A stretch of 64,000 nt of DNA from Parcubacteria group bacterium (GCA_041659505.1 JBAZYF010000002.1:115966-179965); one strand, 5' to 3'. Counted from the stretch's first letter, positions 9,869-63,290 are shown. Made by a program: numbers and translations. Notes: generated by a model not told the origin, from the sequence alone.

Positions 9869-11281
9869 CTAAATTTTAGCCACCTCCCAATGCCCACCTT
9901 TGTCCGGACCGATGCGACGGATAGCCCCGGATTCTTTCAGTTTGGCGATATTTTTCTCCACTGCGCGAGATGAAATTCCCAGTTTTTCAGCCAGTTCATT
10001 TGCGCTTATCTCGTTTTGTTCTCGAATAATATTCAATATTTTCTCCGAACTTTTCTCCGAACTTTTCTCCGAACTTTTCTCCGAACTTTTCTCCACAATT
10101 TTCTGGGTAGTTTTCTCCAAACTTTTTCGCCTTGTTTCTTCAAATTCCTTACTTAAAATCGTAAAGCAAAAACCTCCAGAAGCCTCTTCGATAAAAGGTT
10201 CTGGCAAGCCATAGTCTTTGATTTGCTCGATAGCACGTTTAACTCCGCTTCCATACCGTTCAATCAGCCCGGCATCGCGAAAAATTTCCGCCACTAGCTT
10301 GTTGCGCGGTTTTGATTTTCGTCTTCCGGTTTTTACATCATCCAAAGTTAAATCAAACGGTAGCCAGCCACTATTCCAAAGTTCGAGCTTGTCGAAATAA
10401 ACTCGGAACTGAGAATGGGTTCCTTCTTGATAGTCTCTGTGAATTATCGCATTGATTACTATCTCTCGAATAGCGTCAATAGGATATTGCCATCGTTCTT
10501 CCCGCTGAGGATTGCCCGTAATAATGAATTCTTTCAGAATGTATGTTTTTATGAATTCCATCACTTCATCCACTTCGCTGATCAGATCCTGTCTGATTAT
10601 CCTGTCTTTCTTGATTGTGATATCGTCCTGAAATAGACCTATCTGGATATCGGTTTGCCGGGAAGGGACTTTCGCAAACAATAGCAAGCTGGCATTGGTC
10701 GGATATTCGTTACTATTTTCTTCCACTATTAAGGAATATTTGCGCAAAAAGCTAAAAGCATCACCCAAGTCAATCCCTAAATTTTTTTCGATCATACTCT
10801 TGATTTTCTCAATTTTTTCGGAGTCCAAATCATCCAGACTTTTTTCTTTGTTAGGATAAAAATCCCAACTGGAATTTTTTGTTCGCAAATACATCTCCGA
10901 TATTTCCTGCAAAGTCAAAAGATGATTGCCATTATTCTTTCGCTGATAGAACCTTCCTTTGAAAGACACGGGTTTCAAGGGAAATTCAGCCACCTCAAAG
11001 ACAACGACTATTTTATTGTCAATTACCTGCTTTTCAATCTCAACGCTCAAAAATGGTTGCGTTTTACTTCTAATTTCGCTAGCCCAACGCCCGATACTCT
11101 CCCGATTCAATTCCGTACCCTTGATTTTTTTATCATCAGACACGCCGACAATCACCACCCCGCCTTTACTATTAGCGAAAGCAACCAAACTGATAATCAC
11201 CTCGTCAGAAAAAGACAACTTTAATTCAACATTGGCATTTTCTCCGCCTGCTATTATCTTTTTTATGCTAATTTCATTCAT
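9869..11281 (-). CDS. ATP-binding regulator with AlbA_2 (Schlafen-like) N-domain, HATPase-like core and C-terminal winged-helix HTH
   Basis: Domain order typical of the 'divergent AAA / putative transcriptional regulator' family; C-terminal NEISANELAEKLGISSRAVEKNIAKLKESGAIRRIG is a wHTH; contains low-complexity (KSSE)n linker. Confidence 0.55.
   Translation of the reverse strand: MNEISIKKIIAGGENANVELKLSFSDEVIISLVAFANSKGGVVIVGVSDDKKIKGTELNRESIGRWASEIRSKTQPFLSVEIEKQVIDNKIVVVFEVAEFPLKPVSFKGRFYQRKNNGNHLLTLQEISEMYLRTKNSSWDFYPNKEKSLDDLDSEKIEKIKSMIEKNLGIDLGDAFSFLRKYSLIVEENSNEYPTNASLLLFAKVPSRQTDIQIGLFQDDITIKKDRIIRQDLISEVDEVMEFIKTYILKEFIITGNPQREERWQYPIDAIREIVINAIIHRDYQEGTHSQFRVYFDKLELWNSGWLPFDLTLDDVKTGRRKSKPRNKLVAEIFRDAGLIERYGSGVKRAIEQIKDYGLPEPFIEEASGGFCFTILSKEFEETRRKSLEKTTQKIVEKSSEKSSEKSSEKSSEKILNIIREQNEISANELAEKLGISSRAVEKNIAKLKESGAIRRIGPDKGGHWEVAKI
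10039..10122. repeat. 12-bp tandem repeat TTTTCTCCGAAC x4 perfect + 3 degenerate units, in-frame within 9869..11281 (encodes KSSE repeats)
   Basis: Directly visible in sequence; unit length multiple of 3 so copy-number change keeps frame. Confidence 0.85.
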
Positions 11282-13182: not shown

Positions 13183-14360
13183 TGTTGATTAATAAGTCTA
13201 ATTAAATTTTCCTCAAAAATATCCTCCCAATCAAATTCCTTAGCATATGCGATTGCATTTTTGCGATACTCTTGCAAAGTTTTTTCATCTTTGAGAAGCG
13301 CAATTATTTTCTCCGCGATTTCCTCCTTGTCTTGACTAATCACAAATCCGCAACGCCTTTTCTCAATTTCCCTGGCATTGTGCGCCACGTCAGAGAGCAA
13401 AATTGGTAGCCCGCCCGCCAGATAAGCTTTGACCTTTCCCGGATCAGAAAAATTGGTAAAACTCAAGGCGCCACTTTCGTCATATTTTTCGTACAGCGCC
13501 ACGGCCGCCGCACATTTGGAAAGCATTTTTTCCACCTCGCTATGCTTTTCCACGTAACCCACAAACTCCACGTTCTTTCCTATATCCAATTTTTTAGTTT
13601 GCTTTTTTAATGCTTCCAGATAGCTTCCATCGCCGATTACTAAAAACTGAAAATCGGGCAACTGTCCGATTACGGCAGGCACTGCCCTCAAGGCATACTG
13701 CACTCCCTGCTTTTCCAAAATATGCCCCATAAACACCAGGGTGTGTTTTTCAATTTGAGAAAAATCCAGACGCGGAAAACGGGAAAACCAAATGCCGATC
13801 GGAACGGTGATTTGATTGCCACCGGAAAAGCCGAAATATTCTTTTCGCGCCTGCGCCATCCGCGGAGAGAGATTCCACGTTTCATCAGCATGCCGCACAC
13901 AAAACTGATCCAGTTTATGATAGAAATAATTGAGAATTTTAATATCAAATCTTTTGGGATTATAATCTATCACGTAGTAGATCACTTTTTTGGTTTTGCC
14001 GAAAAAGCGCAAAACTATGCCGGAAAAAGCATTGAGATTATCGCAACCGATAAACAGATCGCTCTTGGGCATTTTTTGCCAGGTCCAAAAAATATTCAGC
14101 GCGATGTCGATTGAATAGACCAACAGGGCGAAATTCTTTTTGATCTTACGATACTTTTCTTCTTTTAACTCCCCCTTTTCATAAACCTCATATCCAGAAC
14201 CGGACAATTTTTCATCCCAAAAAAGCGGATGCCCGATAAACAAAAGCTTGCCGACACTATTATTCAGCAAATATTCCCGCAAATCCTGCGCCGGACCGGT
14301 CGCATAGACATGCGTGGCAATGACAATATTTTTAGCTTTCAGTTCTAGCATTATTTTCAC
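13179..14360 (-). CDS. Glycosyltransferase family 1 (GT4-like)
   Basis: GT-B C-terminal sugar-donor binding region (SFTNFSDPGKVKAYLAGGLPILLSD); GTG start overlaps repeat copy A. Confidence 0.75.
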   Translation of the reverse strand: MKIMLELKAKNIVIATHVYATGPAQDLREYLLNNSVGKLLFIGHPLFWDEKLSGSGYEVYEKGELKEEKYRKIKKNFALLVYSIDIALNIFWTWQKMPKSDLFIGCDNLNAFSGIVLRFFGKTKKVIYYVIDYNPKRFDIKILNYFYHKLDQFCVRHADETWNLSPRMAQARKEYFGFSGGNQITVPIGIWFSRFPRLDFSQIEKHTLVFMGHILEKQGVQYALRAVPAVIGQLPDFQFLVIGDGSYLEALKKQTKKLDIGKNVEFVGYVEKHSEVEKMLSKCAAAVALYEKYDESGALSFTNFSDPGKVKAYLAGGLPILLSDVAHNAREIEKRRCGFVISQDKEEIAEKIIALLKDEKTLQEYRKNAIAYAKEFDWEDIFEENLIRLINQQ

Positions 14361-14386
14361 GACTTACGCATTTGCCCAAGTCAGCC
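14358..14386 (+). repeat. Copy A of dispersed palindromic element (CACGACTTACGCATTTGCCCAAGTCAGCC)
   Basis: Near-identical (34/36) to copy F at 56478; shares core with 46634, 48396, 54243, 55369. Confidence 0.7.
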
Positions 14387-43293: not shown

Positions 43294-43416
43294 TAATTAC
43301 TTTACCCTATCCGCTTTCAACTGTCAAATTTCATCATTATCTTGCCACCAATTAACCACCCATTAGTCTTTCAGCTTTAAGTAACTGCGCTTTAATTTTA
43401 GCCCAACCTTATTTGT

Positions 43417-45222
43417 TTGGCAAAAAGTAAATTTCCCGATATAATAGAGGTGATGAAAAAACTGCAAAATCTCAATGGATATGAGCTTTTTTCCGCCTTC
43501 GGAATTTTTGTTTTGGGGTGGGATTTTTTGGCGATTGTCCTTGCAATGCTGCGAATTTTTTATTGGCCGATCTTATTAGCCTATCTTCTCGCCGGCGCCA
43601 GCTTTCTTTTTTGGCTCATGGTCAAAAATTACAGGCGCATAATCTCACGTCGATCGATCCCATCACTAATCGCGCTGATAATTATCACCCTATCAATTGT
43701 CACCCTAACTTTCTTCACCACGCCCTCTGTTTTTTCCGGACGCGATCAGGGATCATTCAGCGAAGCGGCTATCCGTCTAGCGCAAAACCATCAATTGGAG
43801 TTTGACTCGACTGCCTCGCAGGAATTTTTCAAAATCTATGGCCCGGGCACAGCGCTCAATTTTCCCGGCTTCAACTATACTCCCGGCGGAAAATTGGTGA
43901 CTCATTTTTCTCTAGGCTACATTGCATGGCTCGCCGGTTTCTATGCTATTTTTGGTCTCAGCGGATTTTCTGTCGCTAATGGCGTTTTGTTTTTTCTTTT
44001 TTTATTGTCCTTTTTCCTCCTACTTAAACTCCAAGCAAATACAAGATCGGCTTGGATTGGACTACTTATTGCCCTCAGTACGTTCATTTTTTCCTGGCTG
44101 TTCAAATTCACCTTGAGTGAAAATTTAGCCTTGGGGTTCATCTGGTTTGGTGTTTTAGAGCTCTCTCTGTTTTTGAAATTTCGCAACCAGCTTTATTTCC
44201 TCTCCGCGCTGGGCGCATTTCTTCTGCTTGCATTCACCAGGATCGAAGCTTGGGCACTGCTACTGATGCTCGGCGGTATTATTTTTATTTTTCAAAAAAA
44301 CGAGAAAAAACTTTTTTCCAAACATGATCAGAAAAATATTTTTTGGCTGTTGGGTATTTTTGTTCTCACTTTCACCAGCAACCTCATCGTCAACAGCCAG
44401 TTCTACCGCTCCTCGCTCAAGGGACTCCTGCATTCTTTCTCCCCCGCCGAAAGTGGTCTTGGCACGCTCAGTGTCCTGACATATTTATTTAAGATTTTCT
44501 ATTATTACAACCTGCTGATTTTTCTCCTCATCGCCGCGCTCGCTGTCATCTACTTTCTCGCCAAGAAAAACTATCTGATTCTGATGCCTTTTTTTCTGCT
44601 TTTGCCATTACTCATCTATCTTGTCCATCCGGGAATCTCCCTTGATCACCCCTGGATGCTTCGGCGCTTTGCTTTTGCCATCATCCCGCTGAGTATCTAT
44701 TATACCGTTCTAATTATTAACCGATTATTCACCAAGAAAAATTATCTTTTTTTTCTGATGGCCGCTTTTCTTCTATTGGCAAATTTAGCTTTTTCAGCTC
44801 CCTTGTTCACTTTTTCAGAAAACGAAACACTCCTTATGCAAACGAAGACACTCAGCGAAAATTTCTCCGCTACCGACCTCGTGCTGGTTGATCGCTTGGC
44901 TTCGGGCGATGGTTGGTCAATACCGAGCGGTCCGCTGAGTTTTCTTGGTGGCTTACAGGCAGTCTACTTTTTCAATCCGGATGATCTCGTCAAAATTGAC
45001 ACAAAAAAATTCACTAATGTCTATTTGATCATCCCTAATGCAAGCCTAAGTCTCTACGATAAATCCGGCCTACTGGAAAAACTAATTCCTCAAAAACCCT
45101 ATAGCCTGAGCAGAAATCACCTGATTGTTCCTGATTTTACAAAGACCGGCGGACTTTCCGAAGAAAGACCAATCGACTACAGCAGTACAATAAATGGAGA
45201 AATTTATTTATTGAAACAATAA
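43417..45222 (+). CDS. GT-C fold membrane glycosyltransferase, ArnT/PMT (GT39/83)-like
   Basis: ~13 TM helices; first extracytoplasmic loop SGRDQGSFSEAAIRLAQN resembles ArnT/PMT acidic loop; TTG start per track, possible ATG at 43453. Confidence 0.55.
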   Translation: MAKSKFPDIIEVMKKLQNLNGYELFSAFGIFVLGWDFLAIVLAMLRIFYWPILLAYLLAGASFLFWLMVKNYRRIISRRSIPSLIALIIITLSIVTLTFFTTPSVFSGRDQGSFSEAAIRLAQNHQLEFDSTASQEFFKIYGPGTALNFPGFNYTPGGKLVTHFSLGYIAWLAGFYAIFGLSGFSVANGVLFFLFLLSFFLLLKLQANTRSAWIGLLIALSTFIFSWLFKFTLSENLALGFIWFGVLELSLFLKFRNQLYFLSALGAFLLLAFTRIEAWALLLMLGGIIFIFQKNEKKLFSKHDQKNIFWLLGIFVLTFTSNLIVNSQFYRSSLKGLLHSFSPAESGLGTLSVLTYLFKIFYYYNLLIFLLIAALAVIYFLAKKNYLILMPFFLLLPLLIYLVHPGISLDHPWMLRRFAFAIIPLSIYYTVLIINRLFTKKNYLFFLMAAFLLLANLAFSAPLFTFSENETLLMQTKTLSENFSATDLVLVDRLASGDGWSIPSGPLSFLGGLQAVYFFNPDDLVKIDTKKFTNVYLIIPNASLSLYDKSGLLEKLIPQKPYSLSRNHLIVPDFTKTGGLSEERPIDYSSTINGEIYLLKQ

Positions 45223-45271
45223 TCCGCACAATTATTCATACATTCGTATAAATTCTTAATTCGTAGAGAAT

Positions 45272-46609
45272 ATGCTCGATCTGACCAGGGAAATCAAGCT
45301 AGATGAAAAAAATACTTTGCGCTACCGACGCTGGCAGGCTTTTTTCTATGCCTTTTGTTTTGCCAGTGCGCTCTATGTCGCTTATTTCATCTTTTTTCCC
45401 ACCCAAGAATTTAACTTTTCCTTCACAATGTTAACGTCCAACAAGGGCAATGCGGTCAACCCAAGAACTACTGATGGAACATTAATCACTGACGGAAAAT
45501 TCTCCGCCGGACAAAAAAGTTTTTTCGACACCTCGCTGGTCGGCAGTTTTTCTAAGATTAAGCTGAGCTTCACGCCAAATAGACTATCCACAAGCCCAGA
45601 AAATTCTCACATCGATTTGCGCAAATCCTATCGCGCGTTTCTTTTTCCCGAGGGTAGTCCAGTTGGTTTTAAAAATGGCACATTAGTTAAGCATGAAAAC
45701 GCTTTCTATCTTATCTCTGCGGGAAAACTGAGAAAATTCAAAGATCGGTCGACACTTTTTGCGCTTGGTTTTTCGGAAAGTGCCTTTATCGATACTGACG
45801 AGCAAGATTTGAGCTACACTCCACTGGATGAAGAAATCACAGATACAAAAATTTACCCAGCAGATTCACTCTTCAAAATCGACGACGTTTATTATCGTTC
45901 AAGTACTGACGGAAGCTTGGAAAAATTCAGCAGCGCAGGGGCTTTTCACAGTCAGTATGAGGAAAATTTTGCCATCCCCAAAAATGCCGATTTTCTTAAT
46001 GCTTACGCTGTCGCTAAAAATCCGATCGGTTTTGCTGATAGCTCCCTAATTTCCTATGGCACATCCGCTTTTATCGTCAGTAGGGATAAAATTTATCCGA
46101 TCGGCGACCCAGATATCTTTCTGAATCAGGGCTATGATTGGAATGATATCATAATAGCAAGCAGTGATGAGCTTTCGCTCTATACTAAAGAAAAATTATT
46201 TACGCTCACTAGTGTGCATCCTGATGGAACAATCTTTTTCGCAACAGACACCCAAAAATGGTACCAAATAGAAAATGGGCAAAAGCATGAACTGCCTTCG
46301 GAAAAAATTGCCAATTCCTGGCTCAAAAAACATCCGATCTCTGTCCTGGCAAAAAGTCTCGAGGTTTTGGGCGGTTGTGATTTGCAAAAAGAAACTTTCG
46401 GTGGCTACGCCTGCCTAATTCCCCTGAACGACACGGAAGATACGGCGGGAAAATACTATGAATTCACTTTTGTGGCAAAAAATGACCTGAAAATTGACAA
46501 CCTCAATCTGCTCTATGAAAAAAATATGACCATGCAAAATCTCAAACTCGCCCTGCGCAATATGATTTTACGGATAAAGGCTCGTTATGGAATTCAAAGC
46601 GCACCATAG
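45272..46609 (+). CDS. Hypothetical N-terminally anchored extracytoplasmic protein
   Basis: Single N-terminal TM (WQAFFYAFCFASALYVAYFIFF) then ~400-aa soluble domain; downstream of ArnT-like gene. Confidence 0.55.
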   Translation: MLDLTREIKLDEKNTLRYRRWQAFFYAFCFASALYVAYFIFFPTQEFNFSFTMLTSNKGNAVNPRTTDGTLITDGKFSAGQKSFFDTSLVGSFSKIKLSFTPNRLSTSPENSHIDLRKSYRAFLFPEGSPVGFKNGTLVKHENAFYLISAGKLRKFKDRSTLFALGFSESAFIDTDEQDLSYTPLDEEITDTKIYPADSLFKIDDVYYRSSTDGSLEKFSSAGAFHSQYEENFAIPKNADFLNAYAVAKNPIGFADSSLISYGTSAFIVSRDKIYPIGDPDIFLNQGYDWNDIIIASSDELSLYTKEKLFTLTSVHPDGTIFFATDTQKWYQIENGQKHELPSEKIANSWLKKHPISVLAKSLEVLGGCDLQKETFGGYACLIPLNDTEDTAGKYYEFTFVAKNDLKIDNLNLLYEKNMTMQNLKLALRNMILRIKARYGIQSAP

Positions 46610-46633
46610 CAATGCCACAAAATTAATAATTTT

Positions 46634-46663
46634 AGGACTTACGCGATTGCCCGAGTCAGCCGG
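46634..46663 (+). repeat. Copy B of dispersed palindromic element (AGGACTTACGCGATTGCCCGAGTCAGCCGG)
   Basis: Shared core with other five copies. Confidence 0.65.
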
Positions 46664-46817
46664 TTTTTCTAAAAAAATCTTGTCTGAGAACGCCTTTTTT
46701 CTTCAAAATTTTCCATTGGTTGCCTTTGATAGAGGGAAAATTTTGAAAAGAAAAAAGAGCGTTCGAGTTATTTTTTTAGAAAATCCGACTACGAGGTGAA
46801 ATGCGTAACTCCTAAAT

Positions 46818-47243
46818 ATGCAACATTCTATGCAAATATCCTTGAAACAATTCGACAAAAATACCATTGCAATTTTCTACAAACTCTTGCACGACAGCCT
46901 ATTCGTGTTGATTATTTTTTTCAGCCTCACACTTATTGCTGAAGCGGTTCTGCCAGGCATCATTATTTCTCACATCGGCTTTTCTAAGATTGTTATTGTA
47001 CTCCTGCTCAATATTTTTCTGATAAAGTTCTTGGCAGAAAAAATCAGTAATGAAAATATAGCCAAAAAAAATGACGCAAAAAATAAAAGCCTGGCAAAAT
47101 TTGCCAGCCCTTTCATCATCCTTGGCGCGCTACTACTCTTTAATGATCAACTGGGAATGAACCTATTTCTCAATCTTTTCATCATCCTAATTTGCGGAAT
47201 CATCGGATATTTGAGTTATCAAATTTTGTTCAACGAGGAATAA
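46818..47243 (+). CDS. Small hypothetical membrane protein (141 aa, ~4 TM)
   Basis: ORF track; hydrophobic helices. Confidence 0.5.
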   Translation: MQHSMQISLKQFDKNTIAIFYKLLHDSLFVLIIFFSLTLIAEAVLPGIIISHIGFSKIVIVLLLNIFLIKFLAEKISNENIAKKNDAKNKSLAKFASPFIILGALLLFNDQLGMNLFLNLFIILICGIIGYLSYQILFNEE

Positions 47244-47272
47244 TCAGGGCTTACTCGTTTGCCGAGATAAGC

Positions 47273-48388
47273 TTAACTTTTCAAATATTCCAAAGTTTCA
47301 CGTGCGCATTTTTCCCAAGAAAACTTTTTGATCTGCTCAGCGCCTTTTGCAATCATCTCACTGCGCAGACTCTCATTCCCCAATACCTGCTCGATTTTCT
47401 CCGCCAAGTCAGCGGGATTTTTTTCGTCAAAATATAGCGGCGCATCGCCCCCCACTTCTCCTAGGCTCGAATTTAGGGCACAAAGGAGTGGTACACGTGA
47501 AGCCAAAATCTCAAGCACGGGAATACCAAAACCTTCGTAGAGTGAAGGATAAACATAGACGCTCGCGCCACGGACCAATGTTCCCATATCGGCAAAAGTC
47601 AGTCGACCAGGTGTGATAATATCTTTTCGAAATGGGCTACTCGTAATTTTTTCAAATACACCATCAGACAGCCAAGCCCTTTCGCCGGCGATAACCAATT
47701 TAATCTCCGATTTAGTTTTTTTCTTGAACAGATCATATGCCTCTACCAGCACACCCAAATTTTTCCGTGGCTGGATTGCTCCGGCATATAAAAGATATTC
47801 CCCTGCGATTCCCATCCGCTCCTTGGTTTTGTTTTCGATTTCCAAATTGCGCAGCACAGCAAACACTTCCGCGTCAAAGCCATGATAGATCACTTTGATT
47901 TTTTTCTCGGAAACGTCCGGATAAAACCGTAAAATATCTTTTTTGGTCGACTCGGAAATGGCAATGATTTTATCCGCTTTCCTAAACGCCCAATTCCCCA
48001 AAAGATTAAGTTTGAATAAATCTTTTTTGGGGAAATACTCGGGAAAATATTTATAGGCCAAATCATGCGCCGTCACCACAATTTTCATCTTTCCAATGCA
48101 ACGAAGCGGAATATTGTGCATTGGCATCCAAAGCACTTCTGGCTTGTCACGGCACAGCTCTCCTGCCAACCAACCTTGCGTCCAAAAAACCGGACGATTT
48201 TTTTGTTTGATCCTGTAATTGGAAAAATTCGGCGACTTAAGCTCAGGGTTAAATTCATTCTTATGATATAGCAAAAATTCACTGGTCGGATCCAACGCCC
48301 CAAAAAATTTCAACATATTATGGATATACACACGCGTCCCATCGATCCGCTCTGCGTCGAGATCCGCTACTTGAATGCCAATTTTCAT
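47273..48388 (-). CDS. Glycosyltransferase family 1 (GT4-like)
   Basis: YVYPSLYEGFGIPVLEILASRVPLLCA EX7E region. Confidence 0.75.
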   Translation of the reverse strand: MKIGIQVADLDAERIDGTRVYIHNMLKFFGALDPTSEFLLYHKNEFNPELKSPNFSNYRIKQKNRPVFWTQGWLAGELCRDKPEVLWMPMHNIPLRCIGKMKIVVTAHDLAYKYFPEYFPKKDLFKLNLLGNWAFRKADKIIAISESTKKDILRFYPDVSEKKIKVIYHGFDAEVFAVLRNLEIENKTKERMGIAGEYLLYAGAIQPRKNLGVLVEAYDLFKKKTKSEIKLVIAGERAWLSDGVFEKITSSPFRKDIITPGRLTFADMGTLVRGASVYVYPSLYEGFGIPVLEILASRVPLLCALNSSLGEVGGDAPLYFDEKNPADLAEKIEQVLGNESLRSEMIAKGAEQIKKFSWEKCARETLEYLKS

Positions 48389-48395
48389 TTTTTTT

Positions 48396-48534
48396 AGGAC
48401 TTACGCGTTTGCCAAAGAGTTGTTCGCACAAGCATTTCTCTTTACACAAAAGGCTAATAGTAAACCAAAATCAAACTGACCGAAATGAGGAAACGTCGCT
48501 TTTAGAATAATTCCTTGGTAAATGCATAAGTCCT
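48396..48534 (+). repeat. Copy C: ~139-nt hairpin element with imperfect 21-nt terminal inverted repeats (AGGACTTACGCGTTTGCCAAAGAG … CCTTGGTAAATGCATAAGTCCT); homologous to 54243..54380
   Basis: Ends pair with G-U-compatible substitutions; internal blocks (GTTGTTCGCAC, GGTAAACCA, CTTTTAGAATAATT) shared with copy D. Confidence 0.65.
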
Positions 48535-48547
48535 GATTTAATTCAAA

Positions 48548-50032
48548 TTAAATTAATTCACCTTTTTTAATTTTCCTGGCAAAATCCTTAAAGCCTTCTT
48601 GTTTGTCTTGTTCAAACATCGCCTTCACCGCGATTGGCGTTGTGGCCGGTGATTTCCAGTTGTAGATAGATTTCAGGTTTTTGCGCATCACGTAGGCGGT
48701 TTTGACCAGAAAATTCGTGTCCCCTTGCACTGGACAAGCGTAGATGTATTCACAAGGATCGCCGCTTTGATTGTAGGTACTTTTGATTTCAAAAGAGATC
48801 GGTAGACCCTTCTCCTTCATCACGCGATAAGATTTAACCGGGTTGGGATAGTGGTTGAAATTTTTGTTCAAGTGCTTGATCTCTTCATTTTTGATATTTT
48901 TAAGCTGGTTGCTTTCAATCATCACCACCCGCCCTAGTTTTTTGTCATAGAAACTCGCTCCACCCTTTTGGGGCTTGATCGGATTTTGCGCCACGATCTC
49001 CATCACCATCGAATAACCCTTCTTTCCTAGATCAAGAGCAAGCGTCAAACTAGGCAGGTCGATCGAGCACGTCAAATAACCCAAGTCTTCGACATTATAG
49101 GATAAAAGGTCATCGTGCTTGGCCAGCAGTTTTTCAAAATCTTTATTGGAAATCGATTCGCGTTTACTGGTATTTTTTTTATCCACGCGAAAAACCACAT
49201 TGTCGTGGATTTTTTGCATGATCAACTGTCCATGATTGTGCAGTCGCTTATTCTTCTCTGTTGTCCGGTCATAATAGAGACAACCTTCTTTGATATAGAT
49301 ACCATGAAAACTGCGTTGGATCATAAAATAAACTTTTTTTGGATCAAGTCCGAAAAAATTGAACCGTTTGAATTCTTCCAAAATTTCCTCGGCTGTCTGT
49401 TCATTGAGGATTATGATCGTGCTCTGCTTGGCCAGCACTTTTTTGGGATTCTTGTGATTCCGTTTAGCAATTTGCACCACGTCATAAGCCATCTGAAGCA
49501 TGTGCCTGTTGCCAAGAGAAATATTCATCAGACTCTTGGGATCCTTGCCAGTCACTTCCAACACTTTTTCTTCTGTGATATTCTCATTGATCTTTTTCGT
49601 TTCCTCGTCCAAACGCTTCCCTTCCAATCCCGCTTTCTTAGCTTCACGGATCGCTTCTTGGCGCATATGAAAGACGACTTCCGTCAAGGAAAACTGACTG
49701 AGATTTAGGAGGTATTTTGTTCCCAGTCCCAAGCGCGTCGCTTCGCCGGCCGCTGTATGTTCCCAGAGGAATTTTCCGGCTAAAATCGCTTTTTCCGCCG
49801 GAAGTGTTTTAATCTTATCATCATCCAGGGTGATAATCTTACTTTGATCGATCGGTTCAAGCTCGTCAAAATTTTCATAGCAGTTGATTGCCTTTTCATC
49901 CCGTTTAATATCCTTCAACGTAATTTTTTTCAGATCGGCGTAATAGTTCCTGAGCATCCATTCGATATAGCGGAGAACAGAGATACGATACTCTTCAAAG
50001 GAGTCCAGGTGAATCTTGGGTTTTGTGTTCAT
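48548..50032 (-). CDS. UDP-sugar pyrophosphorylase, UDPGP (eukaryotic-type UGPase/UAP) family
   Basis: Nucleotide-binding loop LAGKFLWEHTAAGEATRLGLGTKY resembling L(A)GGxGTRLG of UDPGP family; 494 aa. Confidence 0.55.
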   Translation of the reverse strand: MNTKPKIHLDSFEEYRISVLRYIEWMLRNYYADLKKITLKDIKRDEKAINCYENFDELEPIDQSKIITLDDDKIKTLPAEKAILAGKFLWEHTAAGEATRLGLGTKYLLNLSQFSLTEVVFHMRQEAIREAKKAGLEGKRLDEETKKINENITEEKVLEVTGKDPKSLMNISLGNRHMLQMAYDVVQIAKRNHKNPKKVLAKQSTIIILNEQTAEEILEEFKRFNFFGLDPKKVYFMIQRSFHGIYIKEGCLYYDRTTEKNKRLHNHGQLIMQKIHDNVVFRVDKKNTSKRESISNKDFEKLLAKHDDLLSYNVEDLGYLTCSIDLPSLTLALDLGKKGYSMVMEIVAQNPIKPQKGGASFYDKKLGRVVMIESNQLKNIKNEEIKHLNKNFNHYPNPVKSYRVMKEKGLPISFEIKSTYNQSGDPCEYIYACPVQGDTNFLVKTAYVMRKNLKSIYNWKSPATTPIAVKAMFEQDKQEGFKDFARKIKKGELI

Positions 50033-50126
50033 TAGTTTTATGCTTTTGGGCCTTAAAGGTTAAACGCAGGTTTTTGGCCTGCGTTTGAATTATACAATAT
50101 TTTTTACTCCGAGTGCAATACAAGCG

Positions 50127-50531
50127 CTAACAGATATCGCAAACAGGATATTTCGTGCCTCTTTTGACAAAATTCGTTTCCACGTCTTTAAGATCAAACA
50201 TTTTTTTAAAATAGTTCACTACAAAAGCAGTATCCATCCCATTTTTGCAAGTATAAGCGTCAATGCTGACAAAACCGCGCGCTGGAAAGGTGTGGACGCT
50301 AATGTGACTCTCCATAATCACCACAAATCCGCTCCAACCACCCGGGTCTTTAATCTTATTCGATTTGGCAAAATAAATTTCTGGTTCGCTCAAGCGATGC
50401 ATCCCTAAAAGTTCAGGGAGTTCAGTGAGACTTCGCAAAACCAACTCTTTATCATTCAGCTTTTCAGGATCTCCCTGATATCCGTCGAGCATCAGGTGCT
50501 CTCCGAAATTGCACGTGTTTTTCTCTTCCAT
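50127..50531 (-). CDS. speH: S-adenosylmethionine decarboxylase proenzyme (pyruvoyl-dependent, SpeH/SpeD class 1)
   Basis: Self-cleavage motif IMESHISVHTFP (ES↓S) characteristic of AdoMetDC. Confidence 0.75.
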   Translation of the reverse strand: MEEKNTCNFGEHLMLDGYQGDPEKLNDKELVLRSLTELPELLGMHRLSEPEIYFAKSNKIKDPGGWSGFVVIMESHISVHTFPARGFVSIDAYTCKNGMDTAFVVNYFKKMFDLKDVETNFVKRGTKYPVCDIC

Positions 50532-53912: not shown

Positions 53913-54005
53913 CTATTTTTTCTTCTTCTTTGTAGCTTTTTTCTTTGTAACTTTTTTAACAGTCTTCTTTACAGCTTTTTTTGCTGCTTTTTTCTTTGCT
54001 GCCAT
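53913..54005 (-). CDS. Small (30 aa) Lys/Ala-rich basic protein (histone H1-tail-like), candidate
   Basis: Manual: ATG preceded by SD AAAGGATGGTG; translation MAAKKKAAKKAVKKTVKKVTKKKATKKKKK; below ORF-track size cutoff. Confidence 0.35.
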   Translation of the reverse strand: MAAKKKAAKKAVKKTVKKVTKKKATKKKKK

Positions 54006-54242
54006 GTTAGTTCACCATCCTTTCTATTTTTATTTTTTTCCAAAGTTTCTTATTTGAAACTCTCTGAAATATTTTTTAATGATTTTGTTTCGACCTTTGT
54101 TTTTATGAAAAATATTTTTTAAATTTAAAAAATATTTTTCATAAATAAATTATATACCACCACTAAAAATTATGCAAGAGTAAAAAGTTATCCACAGGCA
54201 AATATTTTTTTATTTTTAAAAATAAAAAAAACAAATTACAAC

Positions 54243-54380
54243 AGGACTTACGCATGCGCCAAAAAGTTGTTCGCACGTTCATCTCTTTTAGCATCTCAGC
54301 CCTCTGGTAAACCAGCAAGGGAAAACCAAAATGAAAAAACCGTGCTTTTGAGAATAATTTTTTGGCGCATGCGTAAGTCT
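54243..54380 (+). repeat. Copy D: ~138-nt hairpin element with perfect 21-bp terminal inverted repeats (GGACTTACGCATGCGCCAAAAA … TTTTTGGCGCATGCGTAAGTC)
   Basis: Seen in sequence; homologous internally to copy C. Confidence 0.7.
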
Positions 54381-54597
54381 AACCCAAAAAAGATTCGTCA
54401 TAAAAAAATATTTATCTGATCTTTAAAAAAAATAAATACTCCAAAATTTATCCGCACATTTTTGTCATTTATACCAGAACCTAAATAGCCAAAATTGTCT
54501 AGTTGACGCCCTTCCCAGCTTTGCTAAAATTTAGTATTAGAAACCCGCTTCAACGAAAGCACATTAAAAACTTAAACTAGAAAGGAAGGTGAAAACT

Positions 54598-55233: not shown

Positions 55234-55320
55234 ATTTAAAAAAACCGATTTTATTATGAAATAAAATTCTACTGTTCTTTCCTTATAAGTCGAGTATATC
55301 ATTACTCCCTTTTATAAAAA

Positions 55321-55368
55321 CATAAAATCCCTCGTGGCCTCAGCGCCAAAAGGGATTTTATGTTTTTT
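55321..55368 (+). terminator. Rho-independent terminator (ATAAAATCCCT…AGGGATTTTAT + TTTTTT)
   Basis: 11-bp stem and U-run after + strand gene. Confidence 0.6.
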
Positions 55369-55393
55369 AGGAGTTACGTATTTACCCGAGTCC
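55369..55393 (+). repeat. Copy E (degenerate) of dispersed palindromic element (AGGAGTTACGTATTTACCCGAGTCC)
   Basis: Shares TTTTAGGA lead-in and CCCGAGTC core. Confidence 0.5.
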
Positions 55394-56477: not shown

Positions 56478-56510
56478 CACGACTTGCGCATTTGCCCGAG
56501 TCAGCCGTAC
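56478..56510 (+). repeat. Copy F of dispersed palindromic element (CACGACTTGCGCATTTGCCCGAGTCAGCCGTAC)
   Basis: 34/36 identical to copy A including TTATTTTCAC lead-in. Confidence 0.7.
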
Positions 56511-56558
56511 TTTTTTTAGAAAATACAGTTGTGAGGTTAAATGTGCAACTTCTAAATT

Positions 56559-63142: not shown

Positions 63143-63154
63143 TTTTGTTTTTTT

Positions 63155-63278
63155 ATCCCCCACCACTTTTTTGCTTCTGGATCTATCTAGCCCAGAAATT
63201 GTTTTCCAGTTGTCCAAAAGCACGTACTACCATTTACTTTTTTACGCATGAAGTGCGAGCAAAAAAGTGGTGGGGGAT
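63155..63278 (-). promoter_or_regulatory. 21-bp perfect inverted repeat (arms 63155..63175 and 63258..63278) with 82-nt loop; 3' arm contains putative ftsL SD GGTGGGGGA
   Basis: Arms ATCCCCCACCACTTTTTTGCT / AGCAAAAAAGTGGTGGGGGAT are exact reverse complements. Confidence 0.45.
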
Positions 63279-63290
63279 GAATTTTTGATT

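Follow-up and report, generated by a model that had tools for sequence, protein, structure and literature searches.

Prokaryotic MITEs are less than 500 bp long, AT-rich and intergenic, possess terminal inverted repeats (TIRs) of roughly 4-30 bp, and give rise to transcripts that fold into stable stem-loops (PMC10969869). The hairpin stems of Correia elements (CREE/nemis) are cut by RNase III in Neisseria, and the same literature names the Rickettsia palindromic elements (RPE; PMC10969869). REPINs are hairpin doublets that bear compensatory changes, the singlets being their decayed remnants (PMC3116915).

Here we describe a family of hairpin-forming repeats from a 64-kb stretch of DNA (henceforth 'the window') that carries a large glycan-biosynthesis cluster, followed by prfA-prmC and then the dcw cell-division cluster. 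The host is assigned to Candidatus Moranbacteria (CPR) through the homologues of its SpoIIIAH-like protein, which are named Candidatus Moranbacteria or Moraniibacteriota. CPR bacteria have tiny, gene-dense genomes, and in the literature searched MITE-type repeats are not described for them, the two terms appearing together merely in passing. Our reading, to which we give a probability of about 0.65, is that two elements of the window, C and D, are selfish DNA of the MITE/REP class: members of a lineage-specific family of mobile repeats, non-autonomous and hairpin-forming, in uncultivated Candidatus Moranbacteria. Dispersal, empty orthologous sites, the likeness of copies across species and a series of decaying derivatives argue for such mobile repeats over a vertically inherited RNA gene. 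In this reading the family is a new one of a well-known kind of element, not a conserved RNA gene. Its members in the window are as follows.

54243..54380, plus strand: element D, an intact 138-nt copy of 'type B' that starts with AGGACTTACGCATGCGCCAAAAAGTTGTTC and ends with GAATAATTTTTTGGCGCATGCGTAAGTCT
48396..48534, plus strand: element C, a decaying 139-nt type B copy
46634..46813, plus strand: long form of type A, 180 nt, palindromic throughout, with the same terminus
56479..56553, plus strand: type A copy with an internal deletion, its left end (about 36 nt) fused to its right end (about 45 nt)
14359..14386, plus strand: solo left end or short type A hairpin, ACGACTTACGCATTTGCCCAAGTCAGCC
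47246..47275, plus strand: short, diverged hairpin copy, AGGGCTTACTCGTTTGCCGAGATAAGCTT, between convergent genes
55369..55393, plus strand: minimal 25-nt copy, AGGAGTTACGTATTTACCCGAGTCC, between convergent genes and directly 3' of a conserved intrinsic terminator (55316-55367)

The original prediction, of two homologous long hairpins of about 140 nt, proved real: D was found where it had been placed, C and D align over their whole length at about 72-80% identity, and both fold beyond their shuffles. As a single strand D reaches -60.6 kcal/mol against -28.3 +/- 3.5 for shuffled sequence (z = -9.15; 0 of 200 shuffles equal), while C reaches -41.6 kcal/mol (z = -5.9) on its plus strand and merely -37.2 (z = -3.0) on its minus strand. 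The perfect 21-bp terminal inverted repeats foreseen for D are present (54245-54265 with 54359-54379), separated by 93 nt where about 95 had been expected, and the inverted repeat reaches 31 nt at 90% complementarity. Its basal helix pairs 54244-54272 with 54352-54380 in 29 bp, 26 of them Watson-Crick and 3 G.T, and encloses a non-palindromic interior (54273-54351). The arms of C (48397-48425 and 48505-48533) still pair, as had been claimed, in part through G-U-compatible changes (23 Watson-Crick and four G.T pairs), but the single C-A mismatch attributed to them is in fact two non-wobble mismatches, one C.A and one A.C. Terminal decamers are separated by exactly 117 nt in C and D alike. The interior blocks said to be shared need correction: what both elements have in common is GTAAACCA, C reading AGTAAACCA instead of GGTAAACCA, and CTTTTAGAATAATT in C answers to CTTTTGAGAATAATT in D with a 1-nt indel.

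C lies between two minus-strand genes and is antisense to both, 14 nt after a 494-aa gene (stop 48548) and 8 nt before a GT1 gene (start 48388). The statement that neither element contains an ORF needs qualification, as mechanical ORFs of 50-51 aa overlap D; no conserved coding is present in six copies. A small conserved peptide, a hexapeptide ORF of the form M(K/R)K..F*, was considered and set aside, being present by eye in only three of the six copies. Outward promoters were likewise rejected: the arms contain a TTGGCA box, without a consistent -10 in the flanks.

That the long elements and the short repeats are built on the same terminus was confirmed by counting. The 17-nt terminus GGACTTACGCATTTGCC (<=3 mismatches) has 10 matches in the window against 0.11 expected, and GGACTTACGC (<=1 mismatch) has 9 against 1.6. 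These terminus matches represent seven loci in 64 kb, every one of them intergenic, with copies of 25-180 nt. The ends of the family, (T)YAGGACTTACGCrTTTGCC...GGCAAAyGCGTAAGTCCTR(A), are mutually inverted and form a helix of 29-31 bp. In the long type A form (46634-46813) each arm opens with an imperfect palindrome of 22-24 nt, GGACTTACGCGATTGCCCGAGTC; the element folds at -68.4 kcal/mol (z = -8.5) and fills the gap between a 445-aa and a 141-aa gene, both on the plus strand, ending 5 nt before an ATG. Its deleted derivative (56479-56553) occupies the gap between the start of a GT4 gene and the stop of a 564-aa gene, and the solo end at 14359-14386 lies about 8 nt from the likely start codon (about 14351, read by eye) of a minus-strand GT1 gene, overlapping a mechanical GTG start at 14360. 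The short copies had been taken for minimal hairpins or solo ends of the C/D form; solo ends and truncations they are, but of the 180-nt type A, and with C and D they have the terminus alone in common, not the interior. C and D constitute a subfamily of about 139 nt with a conserved, asymmetric, unstructured interior, and other subfamilies have other interiors or almost none. Within this one genome the copies form a decay series that runs from D, with its 26 Watson-Crick and 3 G.T pairs, through C, with 23 and 2 mismatches, to the deleted derivative and the solo ends. The idea that these are chance inverted repeats in AT-rich spacer DNA has nothing in its favour except the AT-rich context, and is refuted by fold z-scores of -6 to -9, by the count of the terminus and by homologous copies in other genomes, leaving it a probability close to nil.

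All seven copies in the window point the same way, on the C-rich strand relative to GC skew (p about 0.016), and three of the seven lie inside a strain-specific block at about 43400-50500. Situated left of the PALP gene, this block carries the 601-aa, 445-aa, 141-aa, GT1, 494-aa and AdoMet decarboxylase genes and is missing from the corresponding place in five relatives; relatives have a response-regulator gene and aspS at its position, and L018 has the response-regulator gene without the PALP gene. Elsewhere in the window, a tandem array of about seven copies of a 12-nt unit, TTTTCTCCGAAC, at 10027-10134 overlaps a mechanical minus-strand ORF (9869-11281) with Schlafen/AlbA_2, HATPase_c_4 and HTH domains. 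A tRNA/tmRNA search was empty.

Comparison with orthologous sites shows where the elements are missing. D is absent from the orthologous gap (PrmC/K-ORF to SpoIIIAH-like) in L011, L013, L015, L018 and L019; alignment of the gap covers L013, L015, L011 and L017, and searches by motif and with covariance model R1 cover L018 and L019. Throughout the alignment the flanking micro-ORF, the upstream region and the downstream promoter and 5'UTR are conserved, and D occurs in the window only; L017 carries a different, decayed subfamily member at nearly D's position. D sits in a variable A/T-rich stretch between two divergent promoters. Conserved around it are a 30-aa Lys-rich micro-ORF together with about 190 nt upstream of that micro-ORF, a putative TTGCAT-17-TATAAT promoter on the minus strand (54177-54149, read by eye), and, in L011, L013, L015 and L017, a TTGACG-16-TAAAAT promoter (54503-54530) with the 5'UTR of the SpoIIIAH-like gene. 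The description of the 600-bp gap around D as otherwise empty does not hold, for it contains conserved promoter/5'-UTR sequence belonging to each of the two flanking genes, a perfect 44-bp palindrome and a DnaA-box-like 9-mer. Two other sites give comparable results. The 25-nt copy at 55369 is extra sequence relative to L011, L013, L017, L018 and L019, relatives without the element reading ...GTTTTTT directly followed by AAGTG..., and the gap between the GT4 and 564-aa genes measures 120 nt here, including the 75-nt copy at 56479, against 24-44 nt in L011, L013, L017, L018 and L019. Presence and absence are seen between species; in two to three other samples the same strain is 100% identical over these loci, and no presence/absence within the population was seen there.

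The surroundings of D hold further features of their own. Within the conserved sequence that precedes the Lys-rich micro-ORF stands a perfect 44-bp palindrome (54102-54145, TTTATGAAAAATATTTTTTAAA followed by TTTAAAAAATATTTTTCATAAA). L015 and L017 retain this palindrome, its variant in L013 looks compensated on both arms, and it might serve as an operator or as a hairpin of the 5'-UTR. The micro-ORF itself (53913-54005, minus strand) encodes 30 Lys/Ala-rich residues, MAAKKKAAKKAVKKTVKKVTKKKATKKKKK, behind a good Shine-Dalgarno sequence; its DNA is near-identical in L013, L015 and L017, and gene calling places a 30-aa ORF at the corresponding position of L018. Very likely this is a genuine gene, encoding a small basic protein. 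D is flanked by a perfect DnaA-box 9-mer, TTATCCACA (54188-54196, conserved in L013 and L017), and by a one-mismatch version, TTATCCGCA (54448-54456). A replication origin around D was considered and rejected, since DnaA-like 9-mers show no enrichment, 21 occurring where 16 are expected, and the sign of the GC skew stays the same. A 19-nt inverted repeat of 89% complementarity (54195-54213 with 54400-54418, CAGGCAAATATTTTTTTAT / ATAAAAAAATATTTATCTG) brackets D's A/T-rich stretch; its right arm is conserved in L011 and L013, and it could be an older hairpin remnant or chance in low-complexity DNA. In the 5'UTR of the SpoIIIAH-like gene (54503-54597), L011, L013, L015 and L017 bear one or two extra small hairpins that the window lacks.

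A search for further copies had been set beforehand as a check, and they were found in other Moranbacteria assemblies. GTDB genomes and JGI metagenomes were scanned with the exact pattern GACTTACGC-N12-GTTGTTCGCA, a scan that demands an exact match at 19 specified bases and therefore underestimates public copy numbers; syntenic loci of relatives were searched by motif and with R1. Four further C/D-type copies lie in other Moranbacteria assemblies (L003, L007, L013 and L015) at mutually unrelated loci. The L003 copy, found at the same locus in L004 and L005, belongs to a Moraniibacteriota MAG and stands between an AAA_14/DUF4143 ATPase gene and a nucleotidyltransferase/HEPN pair; L007 is a new copy from the metagenome contig scan; the L013 copy (L013:18443-18591) occupies the rsmH-ftsL gap of the dcw operon in sense orientation; and the L015 copy (L015:14697-14837) adjoins hypA. 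L017 contributes a decayed relative of the C/D type (L017:9612-9762) and an end-sharing element with another interior (L017:13970-14090). A match in L006 was discarded as chance in GC-rich coding DNA. Altogether, copies occur at unrelated loci in at least five other assemblies, and intact (D, L003, L007), decaying (C, L015, L017), deleted and solo-end states coexist, at a C/D-type density that seems low, about 1-2 copies per 20-60 kb sampled. The left arm of C is identical to that of the L003 copy and its right arm three transitions apart from it. Across species and at different loci, arm identity is 90% between C and L003 and 93% between L003 and L007; since the non-conserved spacer of the orthologous gap cannot be aligned for the same genomes, these copies are much more alike than neutral DNA. 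Among collections of phages, plasmids and viruses, D had no match in INPHARED, the L003 copy none in PLSDB and the terminus none in IMG/VR.

Folding with covariation analysis, another of the checks proposed at the outset, showed a helix that covaries around an interior without conserved structure. In six copies 93.1% of the cells of the 29-bp helix are paired, against 85.1% in shuffles, and 11 of its 29 pairs have changed on both sides; none of 500 shuffles reaches either value, and shifting the partner by one column lowers pairing to about 45%. Within the interior of about 90 nt RNAalifold finds no conserved pairing, and conservation there takes the form of sequence blocks: CGCAC, GCATCTCT, GTAAACCA and GrAAAC..TGC.CTTT. 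Both the deviations from Watson-Crick pairing and the model scores favour one strand. On the sense strand the helix holds 18 G.T against 3 A.C positions, and the covariance model scores 132-151 bits in sense against 50-67 in antisense (e.g. 151 versus 67), with R1 giving D 132 bits on the plus and 59 on the minus strand, and C 138.7 bits.

Strong covariation, strand-specific scores, conserved length, the interior blocks GrAAAC..TGC.CTTT and GTAAACCA, and the preference for G.T pairs on the sense strand would all suit a multi-copy family of stand-alone small structured RNA genes of about 140 nt, in which a stem closes a functional unpaired interior. Against this reading, Rfam returned no match in the whole 64-kb window at gathering threshold, and at E <= 10 over 46-57 kb it offered generic long-hairpin miRNA models only, far below threshold. 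No conserved promoter or terminator accompanies the copies, which are without synteny, variable in orientation and missing from orthologous sites. Their interior has no conserved structure, their termini are also borne by elements with unrelated interiors or none, and some are decayed. The suggestion of a small structured RNA gene, which the original prediction had offered beside that of a MITE-like element, is therefore not supported, and we regard it as highly improbable. 'MITE-like' stands in so far as the elements are short and non-coding, have inverted repeats of 21-31 bp and dispersed intergenic copies, are absent at orthologous sites and have left decayed derivatives; a length below 500 bp, terminal inverted repeats, intergenic dispersal and presence/absence at orthologous sites fit what is understood by a MITE.

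If C and D are mobile, non-autonomous repeats, a trans-acting enzyme would recognise their paired ends and the adjacent conserved blocks and would move or copy the element into A/T-rich intergenic DNA. Copies that are still mobile would keep matched arms, which would explain the compensatory changes between subfamilies. Fixed copies would decay by point mutation (C, L015, L017), by internal deletion (56479-56553) or by truncation to solo ends (14359, 47246, 55369). The proposed check for target-site duplications gave no convincing flanking direct repeat. The flanks are themselves palindromic (TYA, then GGAC...GTCC, then TRA), so that a TA duplication is indistinguishable from an extension of the inverted repeat; of 23 ends, 20 have the A, all 23 have the Y, and 10 have CA instead of TA. 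The 64-kb window and the 8.7 kb beyond it yielded neither a partner transposase nor a full-length element with such ends, and no transposase turned up among the window's ORFs of >=150 aa or the called genes. As a candidate partner, the IS30-like gene of L021 was rejected, its ends being unrelated. The family has only part of the hallmarks of either MITEs or REPINs; we place it as a MITE/REP-class repeat and assign no superfamily.

An unlikely alternative within the same broad class is that the family is of REPIN type, with a short REP palindrome doubled in inverted orientation and a domesticated IS200-like tyrosine transposase (RAYT) that would mobilise the doublets as hairpins of single-stranded DNA, without target duplication. 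The architecture of type A fits, with a palindrome of 22-24 nt in each arm, one hairpin overall and solo hairpins as apparent remnants. The lack of a visible target-site duplication is as expected, and the excess of G.T over A.C on one strand together with the uniform orientation of the seven window copies fits a single-strand mechanism. RAYT-like Y1_Tnp genes are, moreover, common in Moranbacteria; the MAG that carries the L003 copy has one (30.5 bits), with homologues widespread in the group. None of the three RAYT genes read (L011, L020, L021), however, is flanked by a C/D-family repeat: REPs of the GTAGAGACGAGGC... type border the L020 gene, and a GTAGGGGCGGTTCATGAACCGCCCCTAC palindrome lies inside each of the three. 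Neither of these REPs occurs in the window, where the termini begin with YAGGAC and have no GTAG head, and neither the window nor the 8.7 kb next to it has a RAYT. C/D-type arms mostly lack an internal REP palindrome, and their sense strand is the C-rich strand, not the expected single-stranded lagging-strand template. As an observation on these genes themselves, the 28-nt GTAG palindrome is identical in L011:7842-7869, L020:10361-10388 and L021:10259-10286, within the Y1_Tnp coding sequence, despite encoded proteins that are only about 68-70% identical, and the RAYT gene of L020 has a direct repeat of about 90 nt on both sides, ending in the REP GTAGAGACGAGGCnnnGCCTCGTCTCTAC.

Equally doubtful is the view that these are host-functional hairpin modules of mobile origin, kept for a long stem that acts in cis as an RNase III site, stabiliser, attenuator/terminator or protein-binding cruciform. 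Some copies (C, 46634-46813 and 14359) do lie within a few nucleotides of start or stop codons, the L013 copy is in sense orientation inside the dcw operon, and Correia and ERIC elements have such effects (PMC10969869). Two intergenic gaps carry different hairpin elements in different lineages, which could reflect host selection for a hairpin at those places and not permissive insertion sites, and the arms of an unrelated hairpin at 63152-63281 have been maintained, with a compensatory change, around an interior that diverged. Yet D, between two divergent promoters, is probably outside either mRNA, orientation relative to neighbouring genes is inconsistent, close relatives lack the element at the same sites, and C, L015 and L017 are decaying. 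Less probable again is a reading in which the elements are not plain cut-and-paste MITEs but CPR-specific hairpin replicators of a single-strand kind, or mobile structured RNAs, under selection on the fold of one strand and on conserved unpaired interior blocks. Their mobility would depend on a class of enzyme so far not connected with repeats of this sort, and the host would repeatedly recruit interchangeable hairpin modules at two places, the rsmH-ftsL gap and the one that separates the K-rich micro-ORF from the SpoIIIAH-like gene. A functional fold of the single strand would likewise be in keeping with the G.T excess over A.C, the fixed length and the conservation of unpaired interior blocks; with the uniform orientation of the seven copies and the two re-occupied gaps, these features keep a single-strand (ssDNA or RNA) mechanism, or use by the host, as a minority reading.

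The hairpin at 63152-63281, 130 nt long and directly upstream of the ftsL-like gene in the rsmH-ftsL gap, has 24-bp arms, TTTATCCCCCACCACTTTTTTGCT, folds at -53 kcal/mol (z = -7.3) and is single-copy in the sequence examined. Its orthologue, L017:18601-18732, retains the arms with one compensatory change of T/A to C/G and differs almost wholly in the interior, and in L013 the same gap holds a GGACTTACGC-family element in its place. A conserved stem with a regulatory role in the dcw operon is one possibility. Homology to type B was considered for it and rejected, with a few short words in common by eye and no match to the covariance model.

For the mobile-repeat family, consequences for the host would depend on the site. 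The gene pairs that enclose C and the type A element at 46634 are operon-like; by analogy with Correia elements, either repeat, if co-transcribed with its neighbours, would give the mRNA a dsRNA stem of 29 bp or more that RNase III might cut. D, between its divergent promoters, is probably neutral and merely tolerated. If our reading is correct, reduced CPR genomes too host active or recently active non-autonomous mobile DNA; Moranbacteria MAGs would gain a lineage marker in the repeat, which might also cause breaks in their assembly; and it would flag long dsRNA stems inserted in operons, including the dcw cell-division cluster of one relative. No new mechanistic question is opened unless the partner enzyme is unusual.

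Among known systems, the Correia elements resemble the Moranbacteria family in their size of 100-155 bp, terminal inverted repeats of about 26 bp, intergenic positions near genes, long and internally deleted size classes, and transcripts that fold into long hairpins (PMC10969869). Correia elements also have an evident TA target duplication, copies in the hundreds per genome, IHF sites and outward promoters that are proven, features not demonstrated for the present family, which is dissimilar in sequence, low in copy density and housed in a CPR host. ERIC/IRU (127 bp) and RUP (107 bp) are likewise imperfect palindromes of about 100-130 bp in intergenic or transcribed regions, without coding capacity and with size variants that arise by internal deletion or insertion (PMC3184786, PMC2229807, PMC3049150). 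Their sequence and host range are unrelated, the interior of C and D is not palindromic, and RUP has a known IS630-type partner, whereas the Moranbacteria family yielded no partner. With REPINs the family shares inverted end units that form one hairpin, compensatory stem changes, a spacer less conserved than the ends, and solo units that look like decayed remnants; REPINs have no target duplication (PMC3116915), and none is evident for the present family. It departs from them in having no GTAG head and no RAYT flanked by a C/D-family repeat, in a stem and spacer longer than is typical, and in arms that in C and D are not themselves palindromic. RPEs, finally, are palindromic repeats of about 100-150 bp that, like the family described here, spread in small, host-dependent genomes; they often insert in frame in coding genes, whereas all Moranbacteria copies found here are intergenic.
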